A stretch of 56,694 bases of DNA from contig JAWLEP010000019.1 of the NCBI GenBank assembly GCA_041686025.1, positions 1-56,694 of the forward strand, in the 5' to 3' direction. The notes beneath the pieces were generated by a model. The model searched no databases. It was not told the DNA's origin and saw only the letters and a list, made by a program, of their open reading frames with translations. A program made the translations under genes and the position numbers. This DNA comes from Candidatus Fermentibacteraceae bacterium (lineage in GTDB: Bacteria > Fermentibacterota > Fermentibacteria > Fermentibacterales > JCC-6). Below, one piece after another: positions 38,196-56,694 of this stretch (its first letter is position 1; each line of letters begins with the position of its first letter).

Positions 38196-38196
38196 G

Positions 38197-39535: not shown

Positions 39536-39591
39536 ACCGAATTCCGTCGGCGGCTGCCGACGGACGACCATGCCACCGGAGGGACTGCTTC

Positions 39592-41424
39592 TTGCAGCTT
39601 GCCAAGAGACTGACCGCAGCGCTGGGCACCGAGGAGGGAGACCCCGGAGCCCCGTCCAACCTGAAGATGCTCCTGATGCTCATCTGGAGTCACCGCAAGG
39701 CCGTGGGCATAGGAATACTGGCCCTGGTGGGAGTGGACGGACTGCAGCTGCTGGTGCCCAAGATCTTCGAGCGGATAATCGACCAGCTGGCCCAGGGAGC
39801 CGCAACCTCCGAGAAGCTGATCCTCCTGGGCGCCGGGGTGGTGGGCGTCTACATCGGCATGGGGCTGTTCCGCTTCCTCTGGCGCTACTTCCTCATCGGG
39901 ACGTCCATTCGAATAGACCGTGACATCAGGCAGAACCTCTACGACCACCTCCTGAAGCTGTCTCCCCAGTACTACGACCGCACCAAGGTGGGCGATATAA
40001 TGGCCCACGCCACCAACGACATCCGCGCCATCAGGATGGCCACCGGCATGGCGGCGCTGGCCAGCTTCGATGCCGCGCTGCTGGCGGTGGCCACCATAGC
40101 CATCATGATCACCATGAACCTCAGGCTCACGCTGCTGGCCCTGATTCCCCTTCCCATCCTCTCGGTGACCATGCTGCGCTTCGGCAAGCTGGTGCACAAG
40201 CGGTTCACGGCGGTGCAGGAAGCCTTCAGCGAGCTCTCCGAGAAGGCACAGGAGTCGCTCTCCGGGGTTCGGGTGATCAAGGCCTACGGCGACGAGGATT
40301 CGGAGTGCCGCTACTTCTCCGAGAAGGCCGAGAGCTGCGCAGACCAGAACATCCACCTGGCCAAGGTCTGGGGGCTGTTCATGCCCATCATCTCCGCCCT
40401 GGCCATGGCCAGCCTGGCGATACTGCTGGGGGTGGGCGGGCGGATGGTGGTCTTCGGCTCGGTGTCGCTGGGCCAGTTCGTTGCCTTCTCCAGCTACCTG
40501 ATGATGCTCACCTGGCCGATGATGGCGGTGGGCTGGGTGGTGAACATGCTCCAGCGGGGAACCGCCAGCATGAAGAGGCTTCGGCGGATACTGAGCACCA
40601 TGCCGGACATAGCCGACGGCACGATAGAAGAGGTCCCGGACAACTCCATCGAGGTGCGGGACCTGAGCTTCACCTACCCGGGCACGGATACCGAGGTCCT
40701 GCATGACATCGGCTTCCGCCTGCCGCCGAACTCCACGCTGGGAGTTGTGGGCCGTACGGGATCGGGCAAGACCACCCTGGTGGAGGTGATGATGCGCCTC
40801 TACGACCCTCCTTCCGGCACCGTGTTCGTGGGCGGCCGCGACGTCACCGACCTGAAGGTGGAGAGCCTGCGGTCGATGTTCTCCTACGTCCCGCAGGAGA
40901 CCTTCCTGTTCGCCATGTCCATCGCGGACAACATCTCCTTTGGTGCCGACGACCTGGACCGGGACAGGATCAGGGAGCTGGCCGAGGTCGTGGACATAGC
41001 CGACGAGATCGAGAGGTTCCCCCAAGGCTTCGACACCGAGGTGGGCGAGCGGGGAGTGAGCCTCTCCGGCGGCCAGAAGCAGCGGGTGGCCATTGCCCGG
41101 GCCCTGGCCGCGCGTCCCAGCATACTGGTGATGGATGACGCCCTGTCCAGCGTGGACACCGAGACCGAGGCCTCCATCATCGCCCAGCTGGACTCGGAGA
41201 TAGAGGACCAGACGAACGTGATCATCGCCCACCGCATCAGCACCGTTCAGCGCGCCGACCTGATACTGGTGCTGGACGACGGCAGGCTGGTGGAGGCAGG
41301 CACCCACGAGGAGCTGATTGCGCGAGGAGGCATCTACCGCGAGCTCTATGACATGCAGCAGCTGGAAGAGGAGGCCTGCCGGGAGGAAGAGTGCCCGGAG
41401 GACGGGGAAGGGGATGAGGCCTGA
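39592..41424 (+). CDS. Heterodimeric ABC exporter subunit 1 (TMD+NBD)
   Basis: Six TM helices, GRTGSGKT, LSGGQ, non-canonical Walker B ILVMDDA. Confidence 0.93.
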   Translation: MQLAKRLTAALGTEEGDPGAPSNLKMLLMLIWSHRKAVGIGILALVGVDGLQLLVPKIFERIIDQLAQGAATSEKLILLGAGVVGVYIGMGLFRFLWRYFLIGTSIRIDRDIRQNLYDHLLKLSPQYYDRTKVGDIMAHATNDIRAIRMATGMAALASFDAALLAVATIAIMITMNLRLTLLALIPLPILSVTMLRFGKLVHKRFTAVQEAFSELSEKAQESLSGVRVIKAYGDEDSECRYFSEKAESCADQNIHLAKVWGLFMPIISALAMASLAILLGVGGRMVVFGSVSLGQFVAFSSYLMMLTWPMMAVGWVVNMLQRGTASMKRLRRILSTMPDIADGTIEEVPDNSIEVRDLSFTYPGTDTEVLHDIGFRLPPNSTLGVVGRTGSGKTTLVEVMMRLYDPPSGTVFVGGRDVTDLKVESLRSMFSYVPQETFLFAMSIADNISFGADDLDRDRIRELAEVVDIADEIERFPQGFDTEVGERGVSLSGGQKQRVAIARALAARPSILVMDDALSSVDTETEASIIAQLDSEIEDQTNVIIAHRISTVQRADLILVLDDGRLVEAGTHEELIARGGIYRELYDMQQLEEEACREEECPEDGEGDEA

Positions 41425-43526
41425 TGCCACCCCATGGTCCCGGCAGCGGCGGAGGCTACTTCCAGTCCGACGACTACGAGGGCAAGGTCTACGACGCCCG
41501 ACTGGTAAGGCGCCTCCTTCGATACGTTCGCGCTCACCGGAAGCTGGTGATGCTGGCCATCCTCTTCATGGTCCTGTCAACGGGGGTCGAGCTGGCGATA
41601 CCCTACCTCACCAAGGAGGGCATCGACCGCTATCTGGCCAGGCTCTACCAGGTCTACACGGCGCCGCCCGCGGTCTCGGACTCCCTGTTGGAGGCCGACC
41701 CCGAAGGCAGGGACTTCCGGGCGGGAGCCGGAGACAGGCTGCTGGTGCGCAAGGCCGCCCTGGACGACATGGGCCCGGCCAGGCGGATCAGCCTCCTGGA
41801 GGCCGGTGAGCTGGACAGAACGACCTATTACCTCTTCCCCGCTGAGGAGTACGAGGAGGGCGAGTCGCCCGGGCGTATTATGGGCGAATTGTGGCTGGTT
41901 CCGGAGAGGAAGCTCTCGGAGGTTTCCCCCGAGACCATCGTGAAGATCAGGGGCTCGGACCTGGAGGGCATAACCAGGCTGGCGCTGCTGGCGGGCCTGC
42001 TGATACTGCTTTCTCTGGGGGCGGGCTACGGTCATGTGCTGACCCTGCAGATAGCGGGCCAGCGCTCCATGTACGATCTGCGGATGGCGCTGTTCACCCA
42101 CATCCAGAGGCTCTCCCTGAGCTTCTTCGACCGCAATCCCATCGGCAGGCTGGTCACCAGGGTGGCCAACGACATCGAGGCCCTCAACGAGATGTTCACC
42201 GCCGTTCTGGTGAACGTGCTGAAGGACGTCTTCCTGCTGGCGGGCACCATAGTGATACTCTTCGCCATGGACGTGAGGCTGGCCCTGATATCCCTGGCGG
42301 TGGTTCCGGTCTTCGCCTTCGTCTCCGTGGTATTCCGGGTTAAGGTCCGCGGCGTATACCGCGACGTCCGCAAGTACCTGGCCAGCCTGAACTCCAGGCT
42401 GGCCGAGGACGTCAGCGGCATAAAGGTCATCAAGATCTTCCGGCGGGAGAGGGCCAGGAGGGAGCGCTACAGCGAGACCAACGAGAGGTACTTCGACGCC
42501 AATCTCCGCCAGATAATCCTCTTCGGAGTCTTCAGGCCGATGATAGAGGTGGTGGCCGCCATCGGCATCGCGCTGGTGCTGGTCTTCGGCGGCCGCGGCG
42601 TTCTCTCCGGCTCGCTCACCCTGGGCGTCCTGGTGGCCTTCATCTCATACGTGCGGCAGATGTTCAGGCCCATCTCGGACATCAGCCAGAAGTACAACAT
42701 CATGCAGAGGGCCATGTCCTCCGCGGAGAGGGTCTTCAAGATAATGGACACCGAGGAGGAGGTTCGGGAGACCGACAGTCCGGCCGTTCCCGAACGGATA
42801 GAGGGCCGGGTGGAGTTCCGGGACGTGAGCTTCGCCTACGAGCCGGACAAGCCGGTGCTGAAGGAGGTCTCCTTCACGGTGGAGCCGGGGAGGAGCGTGG
42901 CCCTGGTGGGCCCCACCGGCGCCGGGAAGACGTCCATCATCAACATCCTCTGCCGGTTCTACGACGTGGATTCCGGAGAGGTCCTGCTGGACGGCATCGA
43001 CCTCCGGGACCACAGTCTCTCCGCACTGAGGGACAACATCTCCATAGTCCTGCAGGACGCCTTCATCTTCAGCCGCGACGTGGAGGACAACATCCGCCTG
43101 GGAGAGGACATACCCATGGACAGGGTGATGGAGGCCGCCGGTATGGTGCAGGCCGACCGCTTCATCGAGCGACTTCCCGAAGGCTACGAGGAGATGATGA
43201 GCGAGCGCGGGGCCACCCTGTCCACCGGCCAGAAGCAGCTGATCTGCTTCGCCCGGGCCCTGGCCCACGACCCCAAGGTCCTGATACTGGACGAGGCCAC
43301 CAGCAGCGTGGACACCGCTACCGAGCAGCTTATACAGAACGCTATCGAGACCCTCATGCGCGGCCGGACCAGCATCGTGGTGGCCCACCGCCTCAGCACC
43401 ATCCAGAACGCCGACGAGATCCTGGTAATCGACGGCGGCCGCATAGTGGAGCGCGGCAACCACCAGGAGCTCCTGGCCCGCCGCGGCATCTACTACAACC
43501 TCTACCTCCTCCAGTACCAGCAGTAG
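41424..43526 (+). CDS. Heterodimeric ABC exporter subunit 2 (TMD+NBD)
   Basis: GPTGAGKT, LSTGQ, ILDEAT, AHRLST; long loop after TM1. Confidence 0.93.
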   Translation: MPPHGPGSGGGYFQSDDYEGKVYDARLVRRLLRYVRAHRKLVMLAILFMVLSTGVELAIPYLTKEGIDRYLARLYQVYTAPPAVSDSLLEADPEGRDFRAGAGDRLLVRKAALDDMGPARRISLLEAGELDRTTYYLFPAEEYEEGESPGRIMGELWLVPERKLSEVSPETIVKIRGSDLEGITRLALLAGLLILLSLGAGYGHVLTLQIAGQRSMYDLRMALFTHIQRLSLSFFDRNPIGRLVTRVANDIEALNEMFTAVLVNVLKDVFLLAGTIVILFAMDVRLALISLAVVPVFAFVSVVFRVKVRGVYRDVRKYLASLNSRLAEDVSGIKVIKIFRRERARRERYSETNERYFDANLRQIILFGVFRPMIEVVAAIGIALVLVFGGRGVLSGSLTLGVLVAFISYVRQMFRPISDISQKYNIMQRAMSSAERVFKIMDTEEEVRETDSPAVPERIEGRVEFRDVSFAYEPDKPVLKEVSFTVEPGRSVALVGPTGAGKTSIINILCRFYDVDSGEVLLDGIDLRDHSLSALRDNISIVLQDAFIFSRDVEDNIRLGEDIPMDRVMEAAGMVQADRFIERLPEGYEEMMSERGATLSTGQKQLICFARALAHDPKVLILDEATSSVDTATEQLIQNAIETLMRGRTSIVVAHRLSTIQNADEILVIDGGRIVERGNHQELLARRGIYYNLYLLQYQQ

Positions 43527-44270: not shown

Positions 44271-44299
44271 TAGACTTTGCTTTGTTGCATACTTACAAT
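44271..44299 (+). promoter_or_regulatory. Putative sigma70 promoter of the gcv operon
   Basis: TAGACT-17 nt-TACAAT in an AT-rich patch. Confidence 0.65.
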
Positions 44300-44357: not shown

Positions 44358-45461
44358 ATGGAGAAGAGAACCGCGCTCTACGACAGGCACGAGAAGCTGG
44401 GGGCGAAGCTCTCGCCGTTCGCCGGGTTCGTGATGCCCATACGGTATACGAGCGTCCGCGAGGAGCACATGGCCGTCCGGGACAACGTGGGCGTCTTCGA
44501 CCTCTCGCACATGGGCGAGTTCAGGGTCCGGGGAAAGGACTCCCTGGCCTTCCTCGACCATCTGCTCTCCAACGACGCCGACGTGGAGGTGGACCAGGCC
44601 TTCTACTCCACCATGTGCTACCCCGACGGGGGCATCGTGGACGATCTGATCACCTACCGCCTGTCCGAGAGCGAGTTCCTGATGGTGGTGAACGCCTCCA
44701 ACATCGACAAGGACTGGGCCTGGGTGGAGAGCCACATGAAGCCCTTCGACGTGCAGGTGACCAACGAGTCCGACGCCACCTCCCTGGTGGCCATACAGGG
44801 GCCGCGGGCCCAGGAGGTGGTCGCGAAGCTCACCGATGAGGACCTGGACGCCATAGGCTACTACCACCAGCGGAGCGGAACCTTCGCCGGCAGGCGGGCC
44901 CTGATCGCCCGCACCGGCTACACCGGCGAGGACGGCTTCGAGATATACCTGGCCAACGAGGACGCTCCGGAGGTCTGGGACGCAGTGATGGAGGCCGGAT
45001 CGGACGTGGGGGACGGCATAGCGCCCGTGGGTCTGGGGGCCCGTGACTCGCTTCGGCTGGAGATGGGCTACGCCCTTTACGGCAACGACATAGATCACAC
45101 CACCTCTCCGGTGGAGGCCCGGCTCGGCTGGGTGCTGAAGCTGAAGACGGACAAGGACTTCATCGGCCGCGAGGTCATAGAGCGCCAGAAGAAGGACAAG
45201 CCCGGCAGGTACCTGGTGGGCATGGAGGTCCGGGGCAAGGGCTTCGCCCGCCCGGGCACGGAGGTCTACAGCAGGGACCGGAAGGTGGGCACCGTAACCA
45301 GCGGCATGCTGGGACCTGCGGTTGGCCATGGGGTCTGCCTGGCCTACCTGGAGCGCGGCCATCACAAGCGGGGCCTGGAGCTGGAGGCCGACATCCGCGG
45401 CAGGCGGGTGCCGGTGGTCAGGGTCAGGCTGCCGTTCTACAAGGAAGGTTCGAGGAAGTAG
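44358..45461 (+). CDS. gcvT: Glycine cleavage aminomethyltransferase
   Basis: FDLSHMGE, GGIVDD, VVNASN, RTGYTGEDGFE, GLGARDSLRLE. Confidence 0.96.
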   Translation: MEKRTALYDRHEKLGAKLSPFAGFVMPIRYTSVREEHMAVRDNVGVFDLSHMGEFRVRGKDSLAFLDHLLSNDADVEVDQAFYSTMCYPDGGIVDDLITYRLSESEFLMVVNASNIDKDWAWVESHMKPFDVQVTNESDATSLVAIQGPRAQEVVAKLTDEDLDAIGYYHQRSGTFAGRRALIARTGYTGEDGFEIYLANEDAPEVWDAVMEAGSDVGDGIAPVGLGARDSLRLEMGYALYGNDIDHTTSPVEARLGWVLKLKTDKDFIGREVIERQKKDKPGRYLVGMEVRGKGFARPGTEVYSRDRKVGTVTSGMLGPAVGHGVCLAYLERGHHKRGLELEADIRGRRVPVVRVRLPFYKEGSRK

Positions 45462-45508
45462 CGGATGGGACTGCTCGGCCGGCCCGGCCGATGCCGAAAG
45501 GAGCGAAG

Positions 45509-45895
45509 ATGAGCCACATACCGGAGGATCTCAGGTACACCGAGACCCACGAGTGGGTCCGCAGGGAGGACAGCGGCGGCTACACCATGGGAATCACCGA
45601 CCACGCCCAGGACCAGATGGGTGAGATAGTCATGGTGGAGATGCCCCCCGACGAGTCCACCTACGGCGGCGGAGACCCCATTGGGTCGCTGGAGGCGGTC
45701 AAGACCGCCGAGGACTTCCTGGCCCCCATGGACCTCGAGGTGTCCGGCACCAACGACAGCCTCGACGACAGCCCCGAGCTGGTGAACCAGGACCCCTACG
45801 GCAAGGGCTGGCTGGTGCGCTTCACGGCGGACGACGACTCCCAGTTCGACGATCTGATGACCTCCGACGAGTACGCGAACCACATAGGCGAGTGA
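45509..45895 (+). CDS. gcvH: Glycine cleavage H protein
   Basis: LRYTETHEW, GITDHAQ, lipoyl motif EAVKT, NQDPYGKGW. Confidence 0.95.
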   Translation: MSHIPEDLRYTETHEWVRREDSGGYTMGITDHAQDQMGEIVMVEMPPDESTYGGGDPIGSLEAVKTAEDFLAPMDLEVSGTNDSLDDSPELVNQDPYGKGWLVRFTADDDSQFDDLMTSDEYANHIGE

Positions 45896-45918
45896 CGCCA
45901 GGGACGGGTGCGGCAAAG

Positions 45919-47271
45919 ATGACCAGATACATCCCCAACCAGGACGACCAGCGGCGCAGGATGCTGGAGAGGATGGGAGCGGGGTCCTTCGAGGACCTGC
46001 TGGCTCCCCTTCCGCAGGAGGTCAGGCTGGACCGCGAGCTGGACCTTCCGGGGCCGGTCTCCGAGCTCTCGCTGCACAGGCAGATGGCGGGACTGGCCCG
46101 GACCAACACCGGGTCGGAGAAGGTCTGCTTCGCCGGGGGAGGGGCCTACGACCACTTCATCCCCGCGGCGGTGGACCACATACTCTCCCGCAGCGAGTTC
46201 TACACCGCCTACACCCCCTACCAGGCCGAGGCCAGCCAGGGCACGCTGCAGTCGATATTCGAGTACCAGACCATGGTGGCCAGGCTGTGCGGAATGGAGA
46301 TAGCCAACGCGTCGATGTACGACGGCGCCTCCGCCGCCGCGGAGGCGGCCCTGATGGCCATCCGGGTGAAGCGGAAGGACCGGGTCCTGGTGGCCGGCAC
46401 CCTCAACCCCCGCTGGCTGCGGGTGATCCGCACCTACCTGGACCGGGCGGGGTTCTTCGTGGGGGAGGTCCCCTTCGACGACGGCGGGCGTCTCGACGAA
46501 GACGCCCTGGAGGCTCAGATGGAAGACGGCTTCTCCGCCCTGGTGGTGCAGTATCCCGACTACTTCGGGCAGGTGTTCGACCTGCAGCCGCTGGCGGAGA
46601 AGGTCCACTCCCGGGGCGGGCTGCTGGTGGTGGCCGCCGACCCCGTGGCCCTGGCCATGCTCAAGTCGCCGGGCGAGTGCGGGGCCGACATCGTGGTGGG
46701 GGAGGGCCAGAGCCTGGGCATCCCGCTCTGCTACGGCGGCCCCTACTGCGGGTTCATGGCCAGCCGCAAGAAGCTGGCCCGAAAGATGCCGGGAAGGCTC
46801 ATAGGCAAGACGGTGGACAGGGCCGGCGAAACCGGATACGTGATGACGCTGCAGACCCGCGAGCAGCACATACGGCGGGAGAAGGCCACCAGCAACATCT
46901 GCACCAACCAGGCGCTGTCGGCGCTCACCAACTGCGTCTACATGGCGCTGCTGGGGGAGACCGGTCTGCGGGAGGTGGCCCGCCAGTGCTACCAGAGGAC
47001 GCACTACACGGTCCGCCGCATCCTCGAGGAGGTCGAAGGGGCCGCTGTCGTGTTCGACAACCCCTTCTTCCGGGAGGCCGCCGTGCTCCTGCCCGCCTCG
47101 GGAGAGGCGGTTCGGGACGCCATGCTGGACCGGGGCTACCTGGCCGGCATACCGGTCCCCGGACTGGGGGAGGGGGCCCTGCTCCTGTCCGCCACCGAGA
47201 AGAGAACGAGGGAGGAGATCGACGGCCTGGCCGAGAACCTGGCCCCGGTCTGCAGGGAGGTGGCCACATGA
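45919..47271 (+). CDS. gcvPA: Glycine dehydrogenase subunit 1
   Basis: EFYTAYTPYQAE, NASMYDG, GEGQ, LQTREQHIRREKATSNICTN. Confidence 0.96.
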   Translation: MTRYIPNQDDQRRRMLERMGAGSFEDLLAPLPQEVRLDRELDLPGPVSELSLHRQMAGLARTNTGSEKVCFAGGGAYDHFIPAAVDHILSRSEFYTAYTPYQAEASQGTLQSIFEYQTMVARLCGMEIANASMYDGASAAAEAALMAIRVKRKDRVLVAGTLNPRWLRVIRTYLDRAGFFVGEVPFDDGGRLDEDALEAQMEDGFSALVVQYPDYFGQVFDLQPLAEKVHSRGGLLVVAADPVALAMLKSPGECGADIVVGEGQSLGIPLCYGGPYCGFMASRKKLARKMPGRLIGKTVDRAGETGYVMTLQTREQHIRREKATSNICTNQALSALTNCVYMALLGETGLREVARQCYQRTHYTVRRILEEVEGAAVVFDNPFFREAAVLLPASGEAVRDAMLDRGYLAGIPVPGLGEGALLLSATEKRTREEIDGLAENLAPVCREVAT

Positions 47272-48746
47272 TGCTCAAGGGAACCCTTCCCACCATATTC
47301 GACAGGAGCCATCCGGGCCGGGAGGGAGCGGCGCTGCCGGAGCTGGACGTTCCGGAGACCGATGCCGAGGAGCTGGAGGGCCTGCTGAGGGAGGGGCCCA
47401 TCGGCCTCCCCGAGGTCACCGAGGGCCAGTGCACCCGGCACTACGTAACCCTCAGCTGTCGCAACTACCACATCGAGCAGGGCATCTACCCCCTGGGCTC
47501 CTGCACCATGAAGTACAACCCCAAGTTCCACGAGACGATAGCCCGGCTGCCGGGCTTCTGCGGCCTCCATCCGGAGCTGCCCGACCGTGAGGTTCAGGGC
47601 ACCCTGGAGATCCTCCGCCGCCTCTCGGAGATGCTGGGGGAGATCACCGGGTTCGAGGCGGTCTCGCTGCACCCGGCCGCCGGCGCCCAGGGCGAGCTCA
47701 CAGGCCTGATGGTGATCAAGAGCCTGCTGGAGGACTTGGGAGAGAAGGACCGTGACGAGGTCCTCATGCCCGACTCGGCCCACGGGACCAACCCGGCCTC
47801 CGCGGTGCTGGCGGGTATGAAGGTGGTGAACCTCAGCTCGGATTCCCGCGGCCTGGTGGACCTCGAAGACCTGCGGGAGAAGGCGGGCCCGAAGACGGCG
47901 GCGCTGATGCTCACCAACCCCAACACGCTGGGGCTGTTCGAGTCGGACATACTGGAGATCACGCGCATCGTGCACGAGGCCGGCGGCCGGGTCTACATGG
48001 ACGGGGCCAACATGAACGCCCTCATGGGCATCGCCCGGCCCGGCGACATGGGCTTCGACGTCTGCCACCTGAACCTGCACAAGACCTTCTCCACGCCGCA
48101 CGGCGGCGGGGGCCCCGGCTCCGGTCCGGTGGCCTGCACCTCCGAGCTGGCCCCCTATCTGCCACATCCCAGGGTGGTCCGCGACGACGACGGAGGCTAC
48201 AGGCTGATCGACCGCGGGGGCCAGGCCTTCGGCCGCCTGCTGGCCTTCGCCGGGAACGTGGGGGTCTGCCTGAAGGCATTCGCCTACGTGCTCTCCATGG
48301 GACCCGAAGGGATACGCAGCGTCAGCGAGAACGCCGTCATCAACGCCAACTACCTGAAGGCGCTGCTCTCGCAGAAATACGAGATCCCCTACGACCGCGG
48401 GCCCTGCATGCACGAGTTCGTGGCCTCCGGCGGCCGCCAGAAGGACGCGGGGGCGGCCACCCTGGACATAGCGAAGCGGCTCCTTGACTACGGATGCCAC
48501 GCGCCCACAGTATACTTCCCCCTGATAGTCAGGGAGGCTCTCATGATAGAGCCTACCGAGACGGAGAGCGTGGAGAGCCTGGATGCCTTTGCCGAAGCCA
48601 TGCTCTCCATCGCCTGCGAGGTGGAAAGCAAGCCCCACCTGGTCACGGACGCTCCGGTGAGCACCCCGGTGCTCCGGCTGGACGAGGTGAGGGCCGTCAA
48701 GGACCTCTGCGTCGTGGAGCCATGGGATCGTCCGGAGAGGGAGTAG
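47268..48746 (+). CDS. gcvPB: Glycine dehydrogenase subunit 2
   Basis: YPLGSCTMKYNP, SAHGTNPAS, PLP lysine in HLNLHKTF, HGGGGPG, EPTETE. Confidence 0.96.
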   Translation: MMLKGTLPTIFDRSHPGREGAALPELDVPETDAEELEGLLREGPIGLPEVTEGQCTRHYVTLSCRNYHIEQGIYPLGSCTMKYNPKFHETIARLPGFCGLHPELPDREVQGTLEILRRLSEMLGEITGFEAVSLHPAAGAQGELTGLMVIKSLLEDLGEKDRDEVLMPDSAHGTNPASAVLAGMKVVNLSSDSRGLVDLEDLREKAGPKTAALMLTNPNTLGLFESDILEITRIVHEAGGRVYMDGANMNALMGIARPGDMGFDVCHLNLHKTFSTPHGGGGPGSGPVACTSELAPYLPHPRVVRDDDGGYRLIDRGGQAFGRLLAFAGNVGVCLKAFAYVLSMGPEGIRSVSENAVINANYLKALLSQKYEIPYDRGPCMHEFVASGGRQKDAGAATLDIAKRLLDYGCHAPTVYFPLIVREALMIEPTETESVESLDAFAEAMLSIACEVESKPHLVTDAPVSTPVLRLDEVRAVKDLCVVEPWDRPERE

Positions 48747-49165
48747 AAAGACTGGAGTGGGTCTCCCATCCCGCCCGGGAGAGGCCGGGGGCAACGCTGC
48801 TGCTGGTGGCGATAATCCTCCTGGCGGGTGTGGCCGCCTCCGCCTACGGCGGCAACGTATGGTGGGGCATAGTGGGGGTCGTTCTCATCGGCCTGACCAT
48901 GTGGACCTACTTCCTTCCCTGCCGGTTCGTCATAGACGACTGGGGGGTCCGCAAGAAATCGCCGTTCGGCGAGGAGAAGATGAGCTGGGACCGCATAAGG
49001 AGCTACGTGCCGGACAGGTACGGCGTTCTGCTCAGCCCCTTCGCCGAGCCGACCAGACTGGCCAAGTTCCGGGGGCTCTCGGTGCAGTTCACCGGAAACA
49101 GGGAGGAGGTCCTTGAGCGTATCCGATCCGGGGTTGAGGGAGATTCTGCCCCGTCAGACGGATGA
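48722..49165 (+). CDS. Two-TM hypothetical protein with a small beta domain
   Basis: Overlaps the gcvPB end; two hydrophobic helices; LLSPF...RL..FRG. Confidence 0.75.
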   Translation: MGSSGEGVERLEWVSHPARERPGATLLLVAIILLAGVAASAYGGNVWWGIVGVVLIGLTMWTYFLPCRFVIDDWGVRKKSPFGEEKMSWDRIRSYVPDRYGVLLSPFAEPTRLAKFRGLSVQFTGNREEVLERIRSGVEGDSAPSDG

Positions 49166-49574
49166 CGGTGAGGAGGACTTCTCCGACCTCATGGCGAAGA
49201 TGGCCCGGGCGGTAGTCGAGAGGCAGCTGACGGTACCCGCCATCGTGTTCCTGGAATCGGTGAAACCCCTTTCTTTCCTGGGGAACCAGCTGATGATATT
49301 CCTCAACCCGATGGTGTCCCTGATAGTGACCTCCAAGGACTACTACCGTTTCGTTCGTATGATAGAGGACCGCGACAACGTCGAGAAGCTGATAGAGGAG
49401 ATAGAGGACACAAACGCCCGCTGGCAGGAGCGGCAGAGGGAGCTGCGGGAGCAGCGCAGGAAGAAGCGCGGAAAGCGCCGGTTCCTGGGGCTCTTCGGCC
49501 GCCGCTCGGACGCGGGGGACAAGGAGGGAGATGGCAGTGGCCAGCAAGGAGATAACCAGAATCCTGGCGACTGA
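49113..49574 (+). CDS. Hypothetical protein
   Basis: SD GGAGGAGG + TTG; core PAIVFLESVKPLSFLGNQ; charged tail. Confidence 0.75.
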   Translation: MSVSDPGLREILPRQTDDGEEDFSDLMAKMARAVVERQLTVPAIVFLESVKPLSFLGNQLMIFLNPMVSLIVTSKDYYRFVRMIEDRDNVEKLIEEIEDTNARWQERQRELREQRRKKRGKRRFLGLFGRRSDAGDKEGDGSGQQGDNQNPGD

Positions 49575-51411
49575 CTGCGGCAGCACCACCACCAAAGCCA
49601 TCCTCATAGAGAAGAAGGGCGATGAGTACCGTCTCATTCGAAGGGGAGAGGCTCCCACCACGGTGGAGGCTCCCGCGGAGGACGTCACCAAGGGGGTGCT
49701 GAACGCTGTCGGCGAGATAGAGGACCTGGAGGGACGCCAGTTCCTCAACGACCAGCGCGACGGAGTGCTGGTCACCGAGGACACCTCCAAGGGAGTCGAC
49801 CTCTACGTCTCCACGTCCTCCGCCGGAGGCGGCCTGCAGATGACGGTTGCCGGGGTGGTCAAGAGCATGACCGGGGAGAGCGCCCAGCGGGCGGCCCTGG
49901 GAGCCGGGGCCATCGTCATGGACGTGGTGGCCACCAACGACGGCCGTCTCCCCCACGAGCAGGTGGCCGACATCCGCAGGTTCCGTCCCGACATGATACT
50001 GCTCTCGGGGGGAATCGACGGGGGCACGACGGAGCACGTCGTCCAGCTGGCCGAGATCATACGTGCCGCAGACCCCAAGCCGCGCTTCGGAGTGGGCTAC
50101 AAGCTCCCGGTGATCTACGCCGGCAACAAGGACGCCCGGGAGCTGGTGGCCGACGAGCTGGCCGAGAACATGGAGCTGAAGATCGTGGAGAACATCCGGC
50201 CGGTCCTGGAGCACGAGAACCTGGGCCCGGCCAGGGACACCATCCACGAGCTCTTCATGGAGCACGTGATGGCCCAGGCCCCCGGGTACCCCAGACTTAT
50301 GAGCTGGACGGGATACTTCGCCGAGGGCCAGGAATGGAAACAGGTCCCCATCATGCCCACCCCGGGTGCGGTGGGCAAGCTGATCGAGACCGTGGCCCAC
50401 AACGAGGGCATCGAGGTGATGGGCGTGGACATCGGCGGCGCCACCACCGACGTGTTCAGCGTCTTCGAGGCCGGCGAGGAGAAGGTCTTCAACCGGACGG
50501 TCTCCGCCAACCTGGGCATGAGCTACAGCGTATCCAACGTGCTGGCCAGCGCCGGGATGGATAACGTCATGCGCTGGGTCCCCTTCGACATGGAGGAGGC
50601 CGACCTGCGCAACAGGATCCGCAACAAGATGATCCGCCCCACCACCATTCCGCAGGCCCTGGAGGAGCTGATCATAGAGCAGGCCATAGCCAGGGAGGCC
50701 CTGCGCCTGGCCCTTGTGCAGCACAAGGACCTGGCCCGGGGGCTGAAGGGAGTGGCCCAGGAGCGGACCATCGGCGACGCCTTCGAGCAGACCCAGACCG
50801 GCGGTACCCTGGTGGACATGATGGGCCTCGACCTGCTTATAGGCTCGGGCGGAGTGCTCTCCCACGCCCCCAGGCGGGCGCAGGCGGCGCAGATGCTCAT
50901 CGACGCCTTCCTGCCCGAGGGGGTCACCATGCTGGCGGTGGACTCCATCTTCATGATGCCCCAGCTGGGCGTCCTCTCCGAGGTCAAGCAGGACGCGGCC
51001 ACCGAGGTCTTCGACAAGGACTGCCTGATTCGCCTGGGCACCTGCGTGGCCCCCAGCGGCCCGCAGCGCAAGCTCAAGGGAGCCCTGGCCGAGATAGAGC
51101 TGGAGATGCCCGACGGCCAGACGCAGAAGATCGACCTCCAGCCCGGCGAGATCAGGGTCATCCCTCTGGCCGTAGGCGAGAAAGCCGGCGCCAGGATCGA
51201 GCCGGCCAAGAACATCGACGTGGGCGCCGGCCAGGGCGACGCCTGGGAGGGCGACCTGGAGGGCGGCGTAGTGGGCCTGATACTGGACGGCCGCGGCCGC
51301 CAGCCCTTCAACCTCCCCGAGGACCACTCGGAGAGGGTTCAGAAGCTGCAGGAGTGGGCAAAGGCCCTGGAGTCTTACCCCGAGCGTTACCTTCACATGG
51401 GGGAGGAGTAG
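49531..51411 (+). CDS. GlmL-like (glutamate mutase L family) ASKHA/actin-fold ATPase
   Basis: Phosphate-1 ATDCGSTTTKA, SSAGGGL, AALGAGA, LLSGGIDGG, MPTP, phosphate-2 VDIGGATTDVFS, IGSGGVLSH; C-terminal LDGRGR extension. Confidence 0.85.
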   Translation: MAVASKEITRILATDCGSTTTKAILIEKKGDEYRLIRRGEAPTTVEAPAEDVTKGVLNAVGEIEDLEGRQFLNDQRDGVLVTEDTSKGVDLYVSTSSAGGGLQMTVAGVVKSMTGESAQRAALGAGAIVMDVVATNDGRLPHEQVADIRRFRPDMILLSGGIDGGTTEHVVQLAEIIRAADPKPRFGVGYKLPVIYAGNKDARELVADELAENMELKIVENIRPVLEHENLGPARDTIHELFMEHVMAQAPGYPRLMSWTGYFAEGQEWKQVPIMPTPGAVGKLIETVAHNEGIEVMGVDIGGATTDVFSVFEAGEEKVFNRTVSANLGMSYSVSNVLASAGMDNVMRWVPFDMEEADLRNRIRNKMIRPTTIPQALEELIIEQAIAREALRLALVQHKDLARGLKGVAQERTIGDAFEQTQTGGTLVDMMGLDLLIGSGGVLSHAPRRAQAAQMLIDAFLPEGVTMLAVDSIFMMPQLGVLSEVKQDAATEVFDKDCLIRLGTCVAPSGPQRKLKGALAEIELEMPDGQTQKIDLQPGEIRVIPLAVGEKAGARIEPAKNIDVGAGQGDAWEGDLEGGVVGLILDGRGRQPFNLPEDHSERVQKLQEWAKALESYPERYLHMGEE

Positions 51412-51413
51412 AT

Positions 51414-52538
51414 ATGGCCTTCGCATACACACCGGGACTGAGAGTTGCGGAGCTTACCGAGATAACCAAGCAGCGGCGCCTTCCCCTCAAGGGTGAGGTG
51501 ACCGTGGAGAAGGGCGCCTCGGTTGACGCCGACACGGTTGTGGCCAAGACCGACCTGCCCGGCAACGTCAGGATGCTCAACATCGCCAAGATCATCGGCC
51601 TGCCTCCGGGGGACATCCCCGAGCTGATGCTGGTGGACGAGGGCGACGCCATAGAGGAGAAGCAGACCCTGGCCCAGTCAAAGGGGCTGTTCGGACTGTT
51701 CAAGAACACGGTCAGGTCTCCCATCGAGGGGATCTTCGAGAGCTTCAACGAGGTAACCGGCCAGGCGGTGCTCCGCGAGCCTCCCATTCCCGTGGAGGTG
51801 GACGGCTACGTGGCCGGAAGGGTCACCGGGATCCTGGCGGACGAGGGAGTCGAGGTTACCACAACCGGCACCTTCATACAGGGGATCTTCGGCATAGGCG
51901 GAGAGACCCGAGGCGAGCTGGAGGTGGTGGTGGACGACCCCGCCCGCGAGCTCACCGCCGACCTGCTGGACGAGTCCCACCGGGGAAAGGTGCTCGTAGG
52001 GGGAAGCTACGTTACCCGCCAGAGCCTGGAGAGGGCCGTTGAGCTGGGCATCAACGCCATTGTGGTGGGCGGCTTCGACGACAAGGACCTCAAGGAGTTT
52101 CTGGGCTTCGACCTGGGCGTGGCCATCACCGGCCACGAGGACAAGGGCATCACCCTGGTGCTCACCGAGGGCTTCGGTCGCATGGAGATGGCCCACGCCA
52201 CCTTCGAGCTCTTCGGCAAGCGGCAGGGCATGCTGGCCAGCGTGAACGGCGCCACCCAGATTCGGGCCGGAGTCATGCGCCCGGAGGTGGTGATACCCGT
52301 AAGCGGCGCCGAGGAGAAGAAGGGCCCCGGCGACCACGAGGCGGGGGCCATGGACATAGGCTCGGAGATCCGGGTCATCCGCGCCCCCTTCTTCGGGAGG
52401 CTGGGCAAGGTGACCGAGCTGCCCCCCGAGCTGCAGGAGCTGGACTCCGAGGCGAAGGTCCGGGTCCTCGGGGTGAAGTTCGACGACGGGGAAGAGGCAA
52501 CGGTGCCCAGGGCCAACGTGGAGCTGATAGAGAAGTGA
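51414..52538 (+). CDS. Hypothetical soluble partner of the GlmL-like ATPase
   Basis: SD GGAGGAG; AYTPGL, RRLP..GEV.V..G..V, QGIFGIG, TEGFG; C-terminal KOW-like IRVIRAPFFGRLGKV. Confidence 0.85.
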   Translation: MAFAYTPGLRVAELTEITKQRRLPLKGEVTVEKGASVDADTVVAKTDLPGNVRMLNIAKIIGLPPGDIPELMLVDEGDAIEEKQTLAQSKGLFGLFKNTVRSPIEGIFESFNEVTGQAVLREPPIPVEVDGYVAGRVTGILADEGVEVTTTGTFIQGIFGIGGETRGELEVVVDDPARELTADLLDESHRGKVLVGGSYVTRQSLERAVELGINAIVVGGFDDKDLKEFLGFDLGVAITGHEDKGITLVLTEGFGRMEMAHATFELFGKRQGMLASVNGATQIRAGVMRPEVVIPVSGAEEKKGPGDHEAGAMDIGSEIRVIRAPFFGRLGKVTELPPELQELDSEAKVRVLGVKFDDGEEATVPRANVELIEK

Positions 52539-52579
52539 TCGGCCCCCTGGGGCACTCCGATACGAACGCGTTGCATCGG

Positions 52580-52608
52580 GGGCTCCGGCTGCCGCCGGAG
52601 CCCTCTTC
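52580..52608 (+). terminator. Intra-cluster hairpin (terminator or mRNA stabiliser)
   Basis: GGGCTCCGGC-TGCC-GCCGGAGCCC followed by TCTTC. Confidence 0.55.
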
Positions 52609-52638
52609 GCCATGAGCGACATTCCAAGGGGGGAGGGC

Positions 52639-53796
52639 ATGAAGACTCGGACCTTTTCAGCCATGGTCCCCGCCGTGCTCCTGATCGCCGCCGCAGTGGC
52701 CGCCCAGCCGGTTAGGGTGGAGAACCTGGAGGCCCAGGACTCCCCCAACGACGCCGGTGGGGCGGTGGAGCTGCGGTGGAGCCTTTCCGACGGAACGGAC
52801 TTTCCAGACAGCATCACCGTCCTCAGGGAGTCCCCGGACGGCGGGATGGAGGTAGTGGGAACCAAGCCTGGCGTGTCCACGGGAGACGTGGATACGGGTC
52901 TGGAGAACGGCCGGGAGTACAGCTACCTGGTGCGAGTTCACAGGGGCGGTGAGGTTGCCGCCGAGCTGGGGCCGGTATCCGCCGTGCCCGCGGCCCAGTG
53001 GCTGCACACCGAGCGATGGGGCATGCTGGTGATCCTGATCATTCTGGCAGGCTTCATCCTCTACTTCATCGAGCAGGGCAAGAAGGGACGCGAGCTCTAC
53101 ATCCGGGAGATCGCCGGCCTGACTGCAGTCGACGACGCAGTTGGCCGGGCCACCGAGATGGGCCGGCCCGTCCTGTACGTACCCGGCATCATGGACATGG
53201 ACAACATCCAGACCATAGCCAGCATGGTGATACTGGGCCGGGTGGCGGCCAGGACGGCCAAGTTCGGGTCGCCGCTGCTGGTGCCGGTGAGCAAGAGCGT
53301 GGTGCTCAGCGTCTCCCAGGAGGTGGTGAAGGAGTCCTACCTGGAGGCCGGCAGGCCCGACGCCTACCAGTCCGACAACATCTTCTACCTCACAGACGAC
53401 CAGTTCGGCTACGCCGCCGGAGTGGACGGCATAATGGTCCGGGAGAGGCCGGCGGCCATCTTCCTGCTGGGGACGTTCTACGCCGAGAGCCTGATCCTGG
53501 CGGAGACCGGCCGCAGCGTGGGGGCCATACAGATCGCGGGCACCGCGATGCCCAGCCAGCTGCCCTTCTTCATAGCAGCCTGCGACTACACGCTGATAGG
53601 CGAGGAGCTCTTCGCCGCCAGCGCCTACCTCTCCCGCGAGCCCAAGCTGCTGGGAAGCCTCAAGGGCCAGGACGTGGCCAAGCTGTTCTTCATCGCCGTG
53701 ATAATCGTCGGAGTGCTGGCCTTCACCCTGGGCGACTTCTGGGAGCCCGCGAACGAGGTGGCCGACTTCATCCGCTTGCTCACCCACGTGGAGTAG
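52639..53796 (+). CDS. Membrane protein: signal peptide, FN3-like domain, DUF6754-like domain
   Basis: D.PND.G..V.L.W...YSY.V beta-sandwich; TM; IAGL.A...AVGRATEMG; LIGEELFAASAYL; TM. The DUF label is from recall. Confidence 0.8.
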   Translation: MKTRTFSAMVPAVLLIAAAVAAQPVRVENLEAQDSPNDAGGAVELRWSLSDGTDFPDSITVLRESPDGGMEVVGTKPGVSTGDVDTGLENGREYSYLVRVHRGGEVAAELGPVSAVPAAQWLHTERWGMLVILIILAGFILYFIEQGKKGRELYIREIAGLTAVDDAVGRATEMGRPVLYVPGIMDMDNIQTIASMVILGRVAARTAKFGSPLLVPVSKSVVLSVSQEVVKESYLEAGRPDAYQSDNIFYLTDDQFGYAAGVDGIMVRERPAAIFLLGTFYAESLILAETGRSVGAIQIAGTAMPSQLPFFIAACDYTLIGEELFAASAYLSREPKLLGSLKGQDVAKLFFIAVIIVGVLAFTLGDFWEPANEVADFIRLLTHVE

Positions 53797-53805
53797 GAGG
53801 GCGGG

Positions 53806-54465
53806 ATGAGACTATACGTACCGCTTGCGATAACGTTCGTTGCGGGGATGATCATGATCCTGCAGTTCTTCATCCCCCACCAGCCCTTCCCCATGCTGGG
53901 AGACGGGGTACAGGACTGGTACGTCATCGTGGCCTCTTCGGCCATCTTCCTGGGCATCCTCAACCTGCTGCGGGTTCACGTAAAGAAGATCCGGCTCCGG
54001 AAAAGGCACTGGCAGTACAGCCCGGTGACCATAGTCGGCTTCCTGACGATGTTCGTCAGCGGAGTGGCGTGGGGAGTCACCGAGGAGACGCCGTTCTACT
54101 ACCTCTTCAACCAGATGGTGGTGCCCATGGGGGCCACCATGTTCAGCCTGCTGGCCTTCTTCGTGGCCTCGGCCGCCTTCCGGGCCTTCCGGGCATCCAA
54201 CTGGCGGGCCACCCTGCTTCTGGCCTCGGCCTTTCTGGTGATGCTGGGCCGGGTCCCCATAGGTGACATCATATGGCGCTGGATACCCGGCGCCGCCGAG
54301 AGCTCGCACCCCTACCTGGTCAGCGAGATCGCAGAGTGGATCATGCAGTTCCCCAACATGGCCGGGCAGAGGGCGATACTCATCGGCGCCGCCATGGGCG
54401 TGGTGGCCACCTCCCTGCGCATGATCTTCGGCATCGAGCGCAGCTACCTGGGAGGTGCTGACTGA
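53806..54465 (+). CDS. Multi-pass membrane protein
   Basis: SD AGGAGG; about six hydrophobic helices; FSLLAFFVASAAFRAFR, RAILIG. Confidence 0.85.
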   Translation: MRLYVPLAITFVAGMIMILQFFIPHQPFPMLGDGVQDWYVIVASSAIFLGILNLLRVHVKKIRLRKRHWQYSPVTIVGFLTMFVSGVAWGVTEETPFYYLFNQMVVPMGATMFSLLAFFVASAAFRAFRASNWRATLLLASAFLVMLGRVPIGDIIWRWIPGAAESSHPYLVSEIAEWIMQFPNMAGQRAILIGAAMGVVATSLRMIFGIERSYLGGAD

Positions 54466-55328
54466 TGAAGAAGCTCCTGGAACGCATAGGCAACGTAGAC
54501 CGGCGGGTGATCTTCGTGCTCATGGCCCTGGCGGTGATAGTACCCCTGGCCCTGAAGCTCACCATGGAGATGCCGGTGGGCGAGGGCCCCAGCTACGAGC
54601 TCTACGAGTACATCGACCAGCTCCCGGCCGACTCCCGTGTACTGATGAGCTTCGACTACGACCCGTCCACCAAGCCCGAGCTGCAGCCCATGGCCCGGGC
54701 TCTGGTGGCCCACATGCTGGGCAGCGATCTGAACATCGTGGCCATGGCGCTGTGGCCGCAGGGGGCTACACTGGGCCAGGAGATTCTGTCCGGCGTATCG
54801 GACAGCCTGGGAGCCGAGCAGTACGAGGACTGGGTGAACATGGGATACAAGACCGGGGGGCAGGTGCTCATCGTCCGTCTGGGCACATCCATCGAAGCCG
54901 CGTTCCCCACGGACCTGGAGAACGTCCCCTACGGGGAGATCCCGATGCTCAGCGACGTAAGCACCCTGCGCGACTTCGACCTGGTGGTCACCCTCTCCGC
55001 CGGAGACCCGGGCATACCGGCCTGGGTGATGATAGCCAGCGACCGCTTCGGAGTACCCGTGGGCGGGGGCTGCACGGCGGTGAGCGCCCCGCAGTTCTAC
55101 CCCTACCTGCAGCAGCGGGATGGCGAGAGGCCCCAGATGGAGGGGCTGCTGGGAGGCCTGAGAGGCGCCGCCGACTACGAGACGCTGATTGAGCGTCCCG
55201 GCCTGGCGGCGGCGGGCATGTCGGCGCAGTCCATAGCCCACCTGGTGATAATGGTGTTCATAGTGATCGGCAACATCACCTTCTTCGCCACCGGCAGGAA
55301 GAAGAGGACGAAGGGAGGCGGACGATGA
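54465..55328 (+). CDS. Membrane protein (TM-soluble domain-TM)
   Basis: TGATG coupling; DRRVIF, SFDYDP...EL.P, WVNMGY, GLLGGLRGAADYE, QSIAH. Confidence 0.85.
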   Translation: MKKLLERIGNVDRRVIFVLMALAVIVPLALKLTMEMPVGEGPSYELYEYIDQLPADSRVLMSFDYDPSTKPELQPMARALVAHMLGSDLNIVAMALWPQGATLGQEILSGVSDSLGAEQYEDWVNMGYKTGGQVLIVRLGTSIEAAFPTDLENVPYGEIPMLSDVSTLRDFDLVVTLSAGDPGIPAWVMIASDRFGVPVGGGCTAVSAPQFYPYLQQRDGERPQMEGLLGGLRGAADYETLIERPGLAAAGMSAQSIAHLVIMVFIVIGNITFFATGRKKRTKGGGR

Positions 55329-55975
55329 CCATCGAGATACTGGGGATCTGGGCGGGAGCCCTTCTGACGCTCTGCCTCTACAGCTTCCTCTACCGCGACA
55401 ACCCCTTCTACCGGTTCGCCGAGCACCTCTTCGTGGGAATGAGCGCCGGCTACTGGGCCGTCTACACCATCTTCTACGTGCTCAAGCCCAACTGGTGGGA
55501 CAGGCTGGTGGGGGCCGGAGACGCCGACCCCAACCTGCTGTGGATCATCCCCGGCGTGCTGGCGATGCTGATGCTGCTGCGGGTGGTGCCCAAGCTGGCC
55601 GTGTACTCCAGGCTCCCCCTGGCGCTGATAGTGGGCGGGGGAGCGGGCCTGCAGCTGGTGACCTTCTTCCAGACCAACGGACTGAAGCAGGTGGAGAACA
55701 CCATCATCCCCCTCACCGGCGGCGGAACGGTGGGCCTGGTGAACAACCTGATACTGGTGGCCGGCGTGGTCTGCGGCCTGGTCTACTTCTTCTTCTCCAA
55801 GGCCCACAAGGGCTTCACCGGGGGCATGGCCAGCACCGGCATCACCATACTGATGGTGGCCTTCGGAGCCAGCTTCGGATACACTGTAATGGCCCGTATC
55901 AGCCTGCTGATCGGCCAGACCCAGTTCCTGCTCTTCGAATGGCTGCCCACCATACCCAGGGTGCTGGGTCTGTGA
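55325..55975 (+). CDS. Multi-pass membrane protein
   Basis: ATGA overlap; SFLYRDNPFYRFAEHLFVG, YFFFS, FGASFGYTVMAR. Confidence 0.85.
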   Translation: MTIEILGIWAGALLTLCLYSFLYRDNPFYRFAEHLFVGMSAGYWAVYTIFYVLKPNWWDRLVGAGDADPNLLWIIPGVLAMLMLLRVVPKLAVYSRLPLALIVGGGAGLQLVTFFQTNGLKQVENTIIPLTGGGTVGLVNNLILVAGVVCGLVYFFFSKAHKGFTGGMASTGITILMVAFGASFGYTVMARISLLIGQTQFLLFEWLPTIPRVLGL

Positions 55976-56002: not shown

Positions 56003-56031
56003 TTGACAGCCCGGAGGGTAGTACCTATTCT
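56003..56031 (+). promoter_or_regulatory. Sigma70 promoter
   Basis: TTGACA-17 nt-TATTCT. Confidence 0.8.
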
Positions 56032-56209
56032 CTTCGCAGCGCTCTGGGAAAGGGGTATCTCAGTCCATTTGAAGCTGCGTTGAATGCAGAATTGCTTTTG
56101 ATCATTCGTGGTTCCCGCCGGATCGGACAAGGGCTGTGGACACAGTCTCTTACCAGTGAACCGGCGGAGGGTTCCGGCTTTACAGCAAAGGGGAGAAAGG
56201 AGAAAAGGC

Positions 56210-56694
56210 GTGTTTAAAAGGGCAACGGCGATAGCGTTCGCCATGGTCCTGCTGATCGCGTTCTCCGCGACGGCAGCTACCACCGGCAAGATAGCCGGCC
56301 GCGTCACCGACCAGGACGGCAATCCCCTGGTGGGCGCCACCGTTATGGTGGTCGGCACGTCATTCGGTGCCATGACGGACGCCAACGGAGAGTACTACAT
56401 CATCAACCTTCCGCCCGATACCTACACCATCAGGGCCAGCATGGTGGGTATGGGCGCCAAGGAGGCGCAGGGCGTCCAGGTGATCACGGACCAGACGACC
56501 CGCATGGACTTCGAGCTCGACCCGGAGGCCACGGGAGTCACGGTCATCACAGTCACCGACCAGAGGGGCATGATCCTCAGGGACGTCACCATATCCGTGC
56601 ACGTGGTTGGCCGTGAGGACATCGAGACCATGCCCGTGGCCGGCGTGGCCGACATAGTCAGCCGCCAGGCCGGTATGACCGTGCTCGACGGGAC
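56210..56694 (+). CDS. TonB-dependent receptor-type protein, N-terminal carboxypeptidase-regulatory-like domain (3' truncated; absent from the ORF track)
   Basis: SD AAAGGAG, GTG; signal peptide, then TTGKIAGRVTD..GNPLVGATV..GAMTDANGEYYIINLPP; plug-like start EDIETMPV. Confidence 0.85.
   Translation, partial: MFKRATAIAFAMVLLIAFSATAATTGKIAGRVTDQDGNPLVGATVMVVGTSFGAMTDANGEYYIINLPPDTYTIRASMVGMGAKEAQGVQVITDQTTRMDFELDPEATGVTVITVTDQRGMILRDVTISVHVVGREDIETMPVAGVADIVSRQAGMTVLDG

Follow-up and report, generated by a model that had tools for sequence, protein, structure and literature searches.

A Candidate ATP-Driven Membrane Module with a GlmL-Like ATPase Behind the Glycine Cleavage Genes of a Candidatus Fermentibacteraceae Bacterium

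Gene Content and Transcription of the Locus

The stretch analyzed (the window, 56,694 nucleotides in full) comprises positions 1 to 56,694 of contig JAWLEP010000019.1, originating from the 94.75% complete genome of a Candidatus Fermentibacteraceae bacterium (assembly GCA_041686025.1). It harbors a module of eight genes, g1 to g8, located directly behind the glycine cleavage genes gcvT-gcvH-gcvPA-gcvPB and encoding a GlmL-like ATPase (g3), its predicted soluble partner (g4) and a cassette of four membrane proteins (g5 to g8), for which an ATP-driven transport function is considered below. All eight open reading frames were confirmed on the forward strand, with a coding-type third-position GC content of 0.80–0.91, and bear out the gene layout, overlaps and gaps described previously in an interpretation made from the DNA letters alone (referred to as the sequence-only reading). 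The features of the locus are as follows (TM, transmembrane helix):

44271..44299, + strand: sigma-70-like promoter match (9/12 consensus) upstream of gcvT; candidate start of a gcvT–g4 transcript
44358..48746, + strand: gcvT, gcvH, gcvPA and gcvPB (glycine cleavage system); neighbors outside the core module
48722..49165, + strand: g1 (147 aa), accessory protein of 2 TM, C-terminally followed by a small soluble domain, as deduced from hydropathy
49113..49574, + strand: g2 (~150 aa), small soluble accessory protein; TTG start uncertain
49531..51411, + strand: g3 (626 aa), predicted GlmL-like ASKHA ATPase of a long, module-linked branch
51414..52538, + strand: g4 (374 aa), predicted soluble partner of g3
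52580..52603, + strand: terminator-like GC hairpin behind g4 (10-bp stem, weak U tract)
52639..53796, + strand: g5 (DUF6754), predicted signal peptide, Fn3-like outer arm, TM, cytosolic six-stranded Rossmann domain, TM
53806..54465, + strand: g6, 6-TM membrane protein, predicted N-in
54465..55328, + strand: g7, predicted TM, extracytoplasmic alpha/beta domain, TM; orientation mirrors g5
55325..55975, + strand: g8, ~6-TM membrane protein, predicted N-out
56003..56031, + strand: sigma-70-like promoter match (10/12 consensus) before the next gene, encoding a TonB-dependent receptor

Overlaps were observed between gcvPB and g1 (25 nt), g1 and g2 (53 nt), g2 and g3 (44 nt), g6 and g7 (1 nt) and g7 and g8 (4 nt), while g3 and g4 are separated by 2 nt, g4 and g5 by 100 nt and g5 and g6 by 9 nt. 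The genes gcvT, gcvPA and gcvPB exceeded NCBIfam cut-offs, and gcvH was assigned by sequence and synteny. An alternative, longer-looking frame at 48757-49116 was rejected as g1 based on its third-position GC content of 0.47.

A consensus scan revealed no forward-strand terminator between gcvT and g8, in agreement with the sequence-only reading, which had, however, overlooked the hairpin in the g4–g5 gap, a perfect 10-bp GC stem followed by TCTTC. An equally strong hairpin (reached by ≤1% of shuffles) is located just after g4 in 12 of 20 relatives. Moreover, g5 directly follows g4 in 15 of 20 loci, and the operon is broken at this position in some relatives. Based on the hairpin and these breaks, the block likely consists of two sub-units, namely gcv-g1-g2-g3-g4 and g5-g8. 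The promoter match upstream of gcvT is a consensus match, which does not prove function; the one behind g8 likely marks the end of the transcription unit, as judged from its sequence. RNA libraries from four studies contained near-identical contigs covering parts of g1 to g7, for which DNA carry-over is possible. These contigs span the g1/g2, g2/g3, g3/g4 and g6/g7 junctions, and none among the pieces listed bridges gcvPB/g1 or g4/g5.

The g3 Protein and Its Relation to Mutase-Linked GlmL Proteins

Proteins of the g3 type are highly conserved, actin-fold ATP-binding proteins that are usually labelled as helpers of a vitamin-B12 enzyme. The g3 protein matched the Pfam family MutL (PF13941) with 419 bits (cut-off 27) and stayed below the NCBIfam cut-offs of NF040745 (227 vs. 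475 bits), NF040744 (213 vs. 600 bits) and TIGR01319 (163 vs. 204 bits). The intact ASKHA phosphate loops DCGSTTTK and DIGGATTD noticed in the sequence-only reading are present, and the phosphate 1, phosphate 2, connect and adenosine motifs of the superfamily are all invariant, with D15, G17, K22, D300, G302, G303, T305, D307, G440, G441 and G480 unchanged in 37 aligned homologs. Sequence identity amounts to 77–96% across the order and to 61–81% across a dozen phyla in the best-scoring 80 of 567 g3 genome loci, a selection that is for this reason biased to the g3 branch and to which all counts out of 80 refer. Record titles of g3 loci name Zixibacteria, WOR-3, Eisenbacteria, Cloacimonadota, Edwardsbacteria, Marinimicrobia, Poribacteria, Latescibacterota, Gemmatimonadota, Nitrospirae and Planctomycetota, and the g3 module was also found in a genome of the anammox genus Ca. 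Brocadia and in the planctomycete Stratiformator vulcanicus.

As controls, three GlmL/Or-4 proteins (L236, L237, L238; 416–502 aa) were used, which were judged to be mutase-linked from adjoining genes for glutamate mutase E, ornithine aminomutase E and GlmE/GlmS-like proteins. These controls are devoid of the C-terminal domain, for which g3 carries approximately 125 additional residues, share 24–34% identity with g3 and score 40–179 bits on the module profile, as compared to approximately 900–1000 bits for module proteins. By sequence, g3 is a separate, longer and very conserved branch of GlmL.

Co-Occurrence of g3 with Membrane Genes and B12 Mutases

Given the MutL match, g3 might simply reactivate, in the ordinary manner, a B12 mutase whose gene lies elsewhere, the membrane genes being unrelated neighbors, and a methylmalonyl-CoA mutase gene is indeed located on another contig of the source genome. 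Neither glutamate mutase nor lysine/ornithine aminomutase was found in this genome. Among 59 g3-carrier genomes (9 Fermentibacteria and 50 of 76 other loci), none encodes glutamate mutase E (PF06368) over cut-off and one encodes a lysine/ornithine aminomutase (PF09043), whereas 57 encode the g5 family DUF6754.

Furthermore, 251 genomes were screened from the phylum of the Ca. Brocadia record (G080), in which the module is distributed patchily. GlmL and DUF6754 were both present in 67 genomes, as compared to an expected overlap of 19.5; GlmL alone was found in three, DUF6754 alone in three and neither in 178. Related genomes are not independent and kinship inflates statistics, so only counts are given. 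The co-occurrence also holds where both genes are far apart on the chromosome (G317, G106, G181, G115), and the three GlmL-only cases include one mutase-linked GlmL (G119) and one fragment. Methylmalonyl-CoA mutase does not track the module: in the same phylum, 33 of the 67 carriers encode it, as compared to 134 of the 184 non-carriers. These distributions, together with the short length and low profile scores of true mutase-linked GlmL proteins, contradict the role of g3 as an ordinary mutase reactivator, which is regarded as highly improbable. The gene-neighborhood check suggested in the sequence-only reading accordingly shows that g3 homologs follow the membrane genes in their distribution rather than glutamate or ornithine mutases. 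Since, in addition, the membrane subunits matched no characterized transporter family, the association of the ATPase with a membrane machine proposed there was corroborated.

Among the 80 g3 loci, g4 was present in 52 of the 66 that offer 2.5 kb of downstream sequence, and the full g5-g8 quartet was observed in 24 of the 40 with 9 kb on both sides. Considering all loci, g6 is located behind g5 in 133 of 135 cases with room. The accessory genes are less regular (g1 in 29/80 and g2 in 52/80 loci), and in Marinimicrobia loci g2 is placed between g4 and g5. In the closed genome G032, which does not encode DUF6754, g4 is truncated. In 16 Zixibacteria-like loci, a gene for a 256-aa protein without Pfam family (L201:2795-3562, minus strand of the reference) is located between g3 and g4.

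Predicted Domains of g4

The AlphaFold2 model of g4 (pLDDT 88) features two nested barrel-sandwich hybrid (BSH) domains, a swivel beta/beta/alpha domain and a KOW/SH3 domain. In VIA-align comparisons, the predicted swivel domain matched the His domain of enzyme I of the phosphotransferase system (PTS) with Z 9.7 (root-mean-square deviation, rmsd, 2.7; 105 aligned); further matches of g4 include rifampin phosphotransferase (Z 8.9), RraA (Z 8.8), RnfC/NqrA BSH (Z 7.5) and KOW (Z 7.5) domains. Pfam RnfC_N was matched by 27 of 63 g4 members. The loop G235-V-A-I-T-G-x-E242 (GVAITGxE) is invariant in these 63 sequences, among which no column of the swivel domain contains histidine at more than 30%, i.e., no conserved phospho-accepting histidine was found. 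Lipoylation of g4 was considered and rejected, since no lysine is invariant and the hairpin lysines, conserved to 67–75%, are off the lipoyl position.

The combination of an ASKHA ATPase with a swivel domain corresponds to the architecture of the glycerol dehydratase reactivase alpha subunit, as described in PMC7674605, and GlmL is called a reactivation chaperone in a figure legend of PMC4682846. Accordingly, g3 and g4 could act like a reactivase, as a chaperone for assembly of the cassette or for exchange of a cofactor on it, the cassette being a membrane enzyme or channel without continuous ATP use; one engine serving several clients would be natural for a chaperone. This explanation is considered quite unlikely. 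The reactivase is not among the 50 structural matches listed for g4, the B12-binding motif was found in no module gene, and the insert of g3 resembles B12-binding domains only marginally (score 23.1, with a shuffled maximum of 21.7).

Predicted Structure and Topology of the Membrane Cassette

The g5 protein matched DUF6754 (PF20539) with 407 bits. Its core was modelled by AlphaFold2 (pLDDT 95.7) as a six-stranded Rossmann domain between two TM helices, with a leading helix and six parallel strands ordered as in the DHS-like fold. The best structural match of the domain is the archaeal sirtuin Sir2Af2 (Z 11.8, rmsd 3.5, 141 aligned), followed by transhydrogenase dIII (Z 9.0–9.4); AgrE, the small subunit of carbon monoxide dehydrogenase, RCK and GT-B domains also match at Z 9–10, a range in which many Rossmann folds are tied. 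Several of these matches share what we take to be the DHS-like NAD/FAD-binding fold of the SCOP grouping. Nucleotide binding by the modelled domain is plausible because of the DHS-like matches and of invariant residues at strand ends. A Foldseek search with the g5 model returned no match at E ≤ 0.001. The outer arm of g5 varies between homologs, being absent, of Fn3 type or a PQQ-type beta-propeller.

Counts according to the positive-inside rule place the g5 domain in the cytoplasm and the g7 domain outside, with g6 N-in and g8 N-out. An extra linker TM is present in six of seven g7::g8 fusions, as this predicted topology requires. Altogether, the cassette is predicted to contain approximately 16 TM helices and to expose soluble domains on either side of the membrane. 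No family was found over cut-off for g6 and g8 and no Pfam family over cut-off for g1; g7 has no Pfam or PDB match, and the Atlas model of a g7 homolog (pLDDT 0.87) matched unnamed clusters only. PDB sequence searches with the module proteins yielded nothing useful. Nucleotide-binding, permease, EcfT or S-component domains of ABC/ECF systems were not detected over cut-off in the eight proteins and their alignment members, TMD0_ABC matching weakly and under cut-off. A complex prediction for the g5 core with g6, g7 and g8 scored 0.76 vs. 0.64 for a control retaining two chains and was not used as evidence.

As an alternative to solute transport, the cassette could be an energy-conserving ion pump in which transport of Na+ or H+ is linked either to ATP (its synthesis or its hydrolysis) or to a redox or phosphoryl reaction at the g5 domain. 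Transhydrogenase, which carries a DHS-like dIII domain on a membrane part of 12–14 TM helices, represents a loose parallel. The dIII matches of g5, the RnfC/NqrA-type barrel-sandwich domains of g4, the unusual conservation of g3 across phyla, single-copy occurrence in many phyla, and the conservation of intramembrane polar residues (charged residues in or near TM helices: g8 E33, g7 H259, g5 D235/K238, g6 R189) are in line with such a pump. However, hhalign comparisons with PntB gave P values of 0.04 for g5 and g7 vs. dIII, which is at best-shuffle level, and of 0.24–0.35 for g6 and g8 vs. the TM part, and PF02233 (PntB) was not matched. Furthermore, g6 and g8 contain no conserved Cys as known from the Fe-S subunits of Rnf and Na+-NQR and match no Rnf/Nqr family, and four to five old paralogous cassettes per ATPase, as described below, fit substrate specificity better. 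An ion pump is therefore considered unlikely.

Paralogs, Fusions and Cassette Copy Numbers

The source genome (G000) encodes a second, divergent system with 33–42% identity, which comprises a g3::g4 fusion on contig C25 and another g5-g8 quartet on C5; a third g5 stands alone on C45. In three of 20 paralog loci, the second quartet is located directly before the g3::g4 fusion and in four more within approximately 6 kb, so that the association of ATPase and membrane genes recurs in this system. The fusion gene (C25:39447-42629, minus strand) is placed where its contig ends and is accompanied by a run of masked Ns. In relatives, the fused protein measures approximately 920–990 aa and occurs in most genomes of the family, not in family f3. 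The second quartet (C5:3775-8238, minus strand) is located directly behind a phosphoglycerate-dehydrogenase-like gene, as judged from sequence, and the lone g5 (C45:17997-19154, minus strand) is close kin of the C5 copy.

Natural g7::g8 fusions exist, including one in the cultured S. vulcanicus, and one DUF6754 protein (P0124) bears g7-like domains in its outer arm. Each of five genomes, chosen for many cassettes, encodes one PF13941 gene vs. four to five g6 genes. In a quick tree of 96 g5 cores, tandem cassettes cluster by position in old, position-specific clades, indicating that the paralogs are old. The families are large, g4 comprising at least 8000 clusters at 90% identity and DUF6754 2548 clusters at 50% identity.

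Further variants were observed among the homologs. One genome (L119/G070) contains 11 DUF6754 matches, including one very divergent, arm-less g5. The g7-like domains also occur C-terminally in long, acidic, proline-rich zinc-ribbon proteins (P0125, P0126, Atlas rows), with clusters mostly from Chloroflexota. The g8 homologs P0131–P0147 carry an insertion of 300–400 aa in one outer loop, and the outer-loop insertion of P0150 matches CheB-methylesterase and helix-hairpin-helix domains.

Genomic Neighborhood and the Glycine Cleavage Link

The order gcvPB-g1-g2-g3-g4 was found in 20 of 20 Fermentibacteria loci, and gcv genes adjoin g3 in 24 of 80 loci, recurring in Eisenbacteria and WOR-3 records. 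Lipoate ligase genes (12/80), TonB receptor genes (12/80, behind the cassette), peptide ABC genes, Tol-Pal genes and genes for an aminotransferase with an aldehyde dehydrogenase are further neighbors. Accordingly, the module could be a dedicated helper of lipoate-dependent enzymes, i.e., of glycine cleavage, serving, for example, lipoate or glycine uptake or product export. The two-subunit GcvP of nearly all carriers would agree with this, a correlation that is confounded by kinship. In the patchy phylum, however, 63 of the 67 carriers and 173 of the 184 non-carriers encode gcvP, and both gcvP and lipA are near-universal regardless of the module. Most loci have other neighbors, and the hairpin lysines of g4 do not fit lipoylation. 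Such a helper role is considered improbable. A lipoate importer in particular was rejected, since 66 of 67 carriers possess lipA and do not need lipoate uptake. The tie to glycine cleavage and peptide fermentation supposed in the sequence-only reading was hence not supported: gcvP is equally frequent with and without the module, the link is positional only, and the module also occurs in the Ca. Brocadia genome, in records of Marinimicrobia and Poribacteria and in S. vulcanicus. The neighborhood hints at amino-acid metabolism, not at glycine cleavage specifically.

As judged from E-values and frame lengths, single-chain GcvP is encoded by 2 of the 67 carriers and by 84 of the 184 other genomes, the carriers mostly possessing two-subunit GcvPA/PB; this bias probably reflects kinship. 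Within the window, the gene right after g8 (56108-56694, + strand) encodes a TonB-dependent receptor with a carboxypeptidase-regulatory N-domain (weak NCBIfam match), which has its own promoter-like site and the deepest RNA contigs of the stretch in two libraries. Upstream of gcvT (36849-43526, + strand), two M16 peptidase subunits are followed by a heterodimeric ABC exporter pair. Farther upstream, an adenylate-cyclase/AAA/TPR protein (17522-20839, + strand) and a response regulator with a PglZ domain (11045-12739, + strand) are encoded.

Proposed Function and Its Significance

The membrane partner is predicted to span the membrane with approximately 16 helices and to carry soluble domains on either side, and each engine is accompanied by several old versions of it. 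We therefore favor an ATP-driven transporter whose engine is shared. More specifically, the module is proposed to represent a non-ABC, ATP-driven solute transporter in which g3 and g4 energize several substrate-specific g5-g8 cassettes, a reading to which we assign a probability of roughly 0.5. Co-occurrence, copy numbers, gene content, fusions and conservation are direct observations, and the folds and the topology are predictions. For this transporter, we infer solute binding, ATP turnover, direction and substrate as follows. The outer alpha/beta domain of g7 would bind the solute, aided by the variable outer arm of g5 (Fn3, beta-propeller or none), and the path would be formed by the 6-TM proteins g6 and g8, which are predicted to be oriented in opposite directions. 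The cytosolic Rossmann domain of g5 may serve as a docking or nucleotide-sensing site, against which the g4 swivel domain with its GVAITGxE loop would be moved by ATP hydrolysis in g3. This action is modelled on the glycerol dehydratase reactivase, in which an ASKHA ATPase and a swiveling domain remodel a partner. As a guess from the neighboring gcv, lipoate ligase, peptide ABC, lysine catabolism and TonB receptor genes, the substrate is most likely related to amino acids.

Several observations weigh against the proposed transporter. No subunit resembles a known transporter by sequence, so that transport is deduced from anatomy and copy-number logic only, and no substrate-binding protein family was found in the module. 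The closed genome G058 encodes g3 and four cassettes with no g4 match, and a cassette is present in the genome of an autotroph genus (G080), for which amino-acid uptake is less obviously needed. Ion pumping would be equally compatible with the charged residues that are conserved within or close to TM helices. The mirror layout of the cassette suggests an ancient inverted duplication, of which the mirror architecture alone remains: inverted homology of g5/g7 and g6/g8 was not significant in hhalign, and our own profile alignment reached 44 vs. 37.9 ± 5.2 for shuffles, with decoy domains scoring as high. Finally, the sample of g3 loci is biased and kin are not independent. In a wider formulation, to which we give slightly better than even odds, the module would belong to an unrecognized class of primary active transporters or ion pumps of at least a dozen bacterial phyla, in which an ASKHA ATPase drives inverted units (two-TM Rossmann plus six-TM proteins) via a swivel-domain coupler, with one engine for several ancient specificity cassettes.

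Database searches revealed no family or structure describing the cassette or the g3/g4 pair. Within open-access main texts, no paper describing the cassette or the g3/g4 pair was found, and no relevant paper was retrieved for DUF6754, PF13941, 'glutamate mutase L' with Chloroflexi, GlmL with Planctomycetes, GlmL/MutL with mutase, Fermentibacteria with glycine cleavage or anammox with glutamate mutase. The primary pumps and importers known to us depend on ABC, P-type or rotary ATPases or on phosphotransfer. If a membrane cassette is indeed driven by an ASKHA ATPase, this would represent a new coupling principle. Moreover, module proteins are liable to mis-annotation as glutamate mutase L in uncultured phyla. 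The system is testable now because the cultured planctomycete S. vulcanicus encodes a g7::g8 fusion.

Comparison with Known Systems

With GlmL/MutL (PF13941, NF040745) and Or-4 (NF040744), g3 shares the ASKHA phosphate 1 and 2 loops, the TSSAGGG motif and the alpha/beta insert. It differs by missing the cut-offs of both NCBIfam families, by its longer C-terminus, by a genome devoid of detectable glutamate mutase and lysine/ornithine aminomutase, and by its near-obligate association with g4 and the membrane cassette. Similarly, g4 has the predicted fold of the phosphohistidine swivel carriers PTS enzyme I, pyruvate phosphate dikinase and rifampin phosphotransferase without a conserved phospho-His. 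PntAB transhydrogenase resembles the cassette in that a DHS-like Rossmann domain is tethered to a multi-subunit membrane part. However, the profile similarity is not significant, sirtuins match better, there is no dI subunit, and the ATPase of the module is a soluble partner.

Group II ECF transporters employ one energizing module common to several specificity modules scattered in the genome, and the module described here apparently follows the same principle. It differs in possessing an ASKHA instead of an ABC ATPase, in the lack of EcfT or S-component matches, and in four-subunit cassettes with predicted soluble domains on both sides. Regarding the glycerol/diol dehydratase reactivase, the module differs in that neither a B12 dehydratase as client nor a mimic of the beta subunit was identified, in that no sequence match was obtained in the PDB, and in its partner, which is a membrane cassette. 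The likeness is that both pair an ATPase of the Hsp70 type with a swiveling domain, represented in the module by g3 and g4, which are often fused. In the reactivase, as described in PMC7674605, ATP is used to release and swap a partner subunit. By analogy, ATP-driven remodelling of a partner is the likely working principle of g3 and g4.

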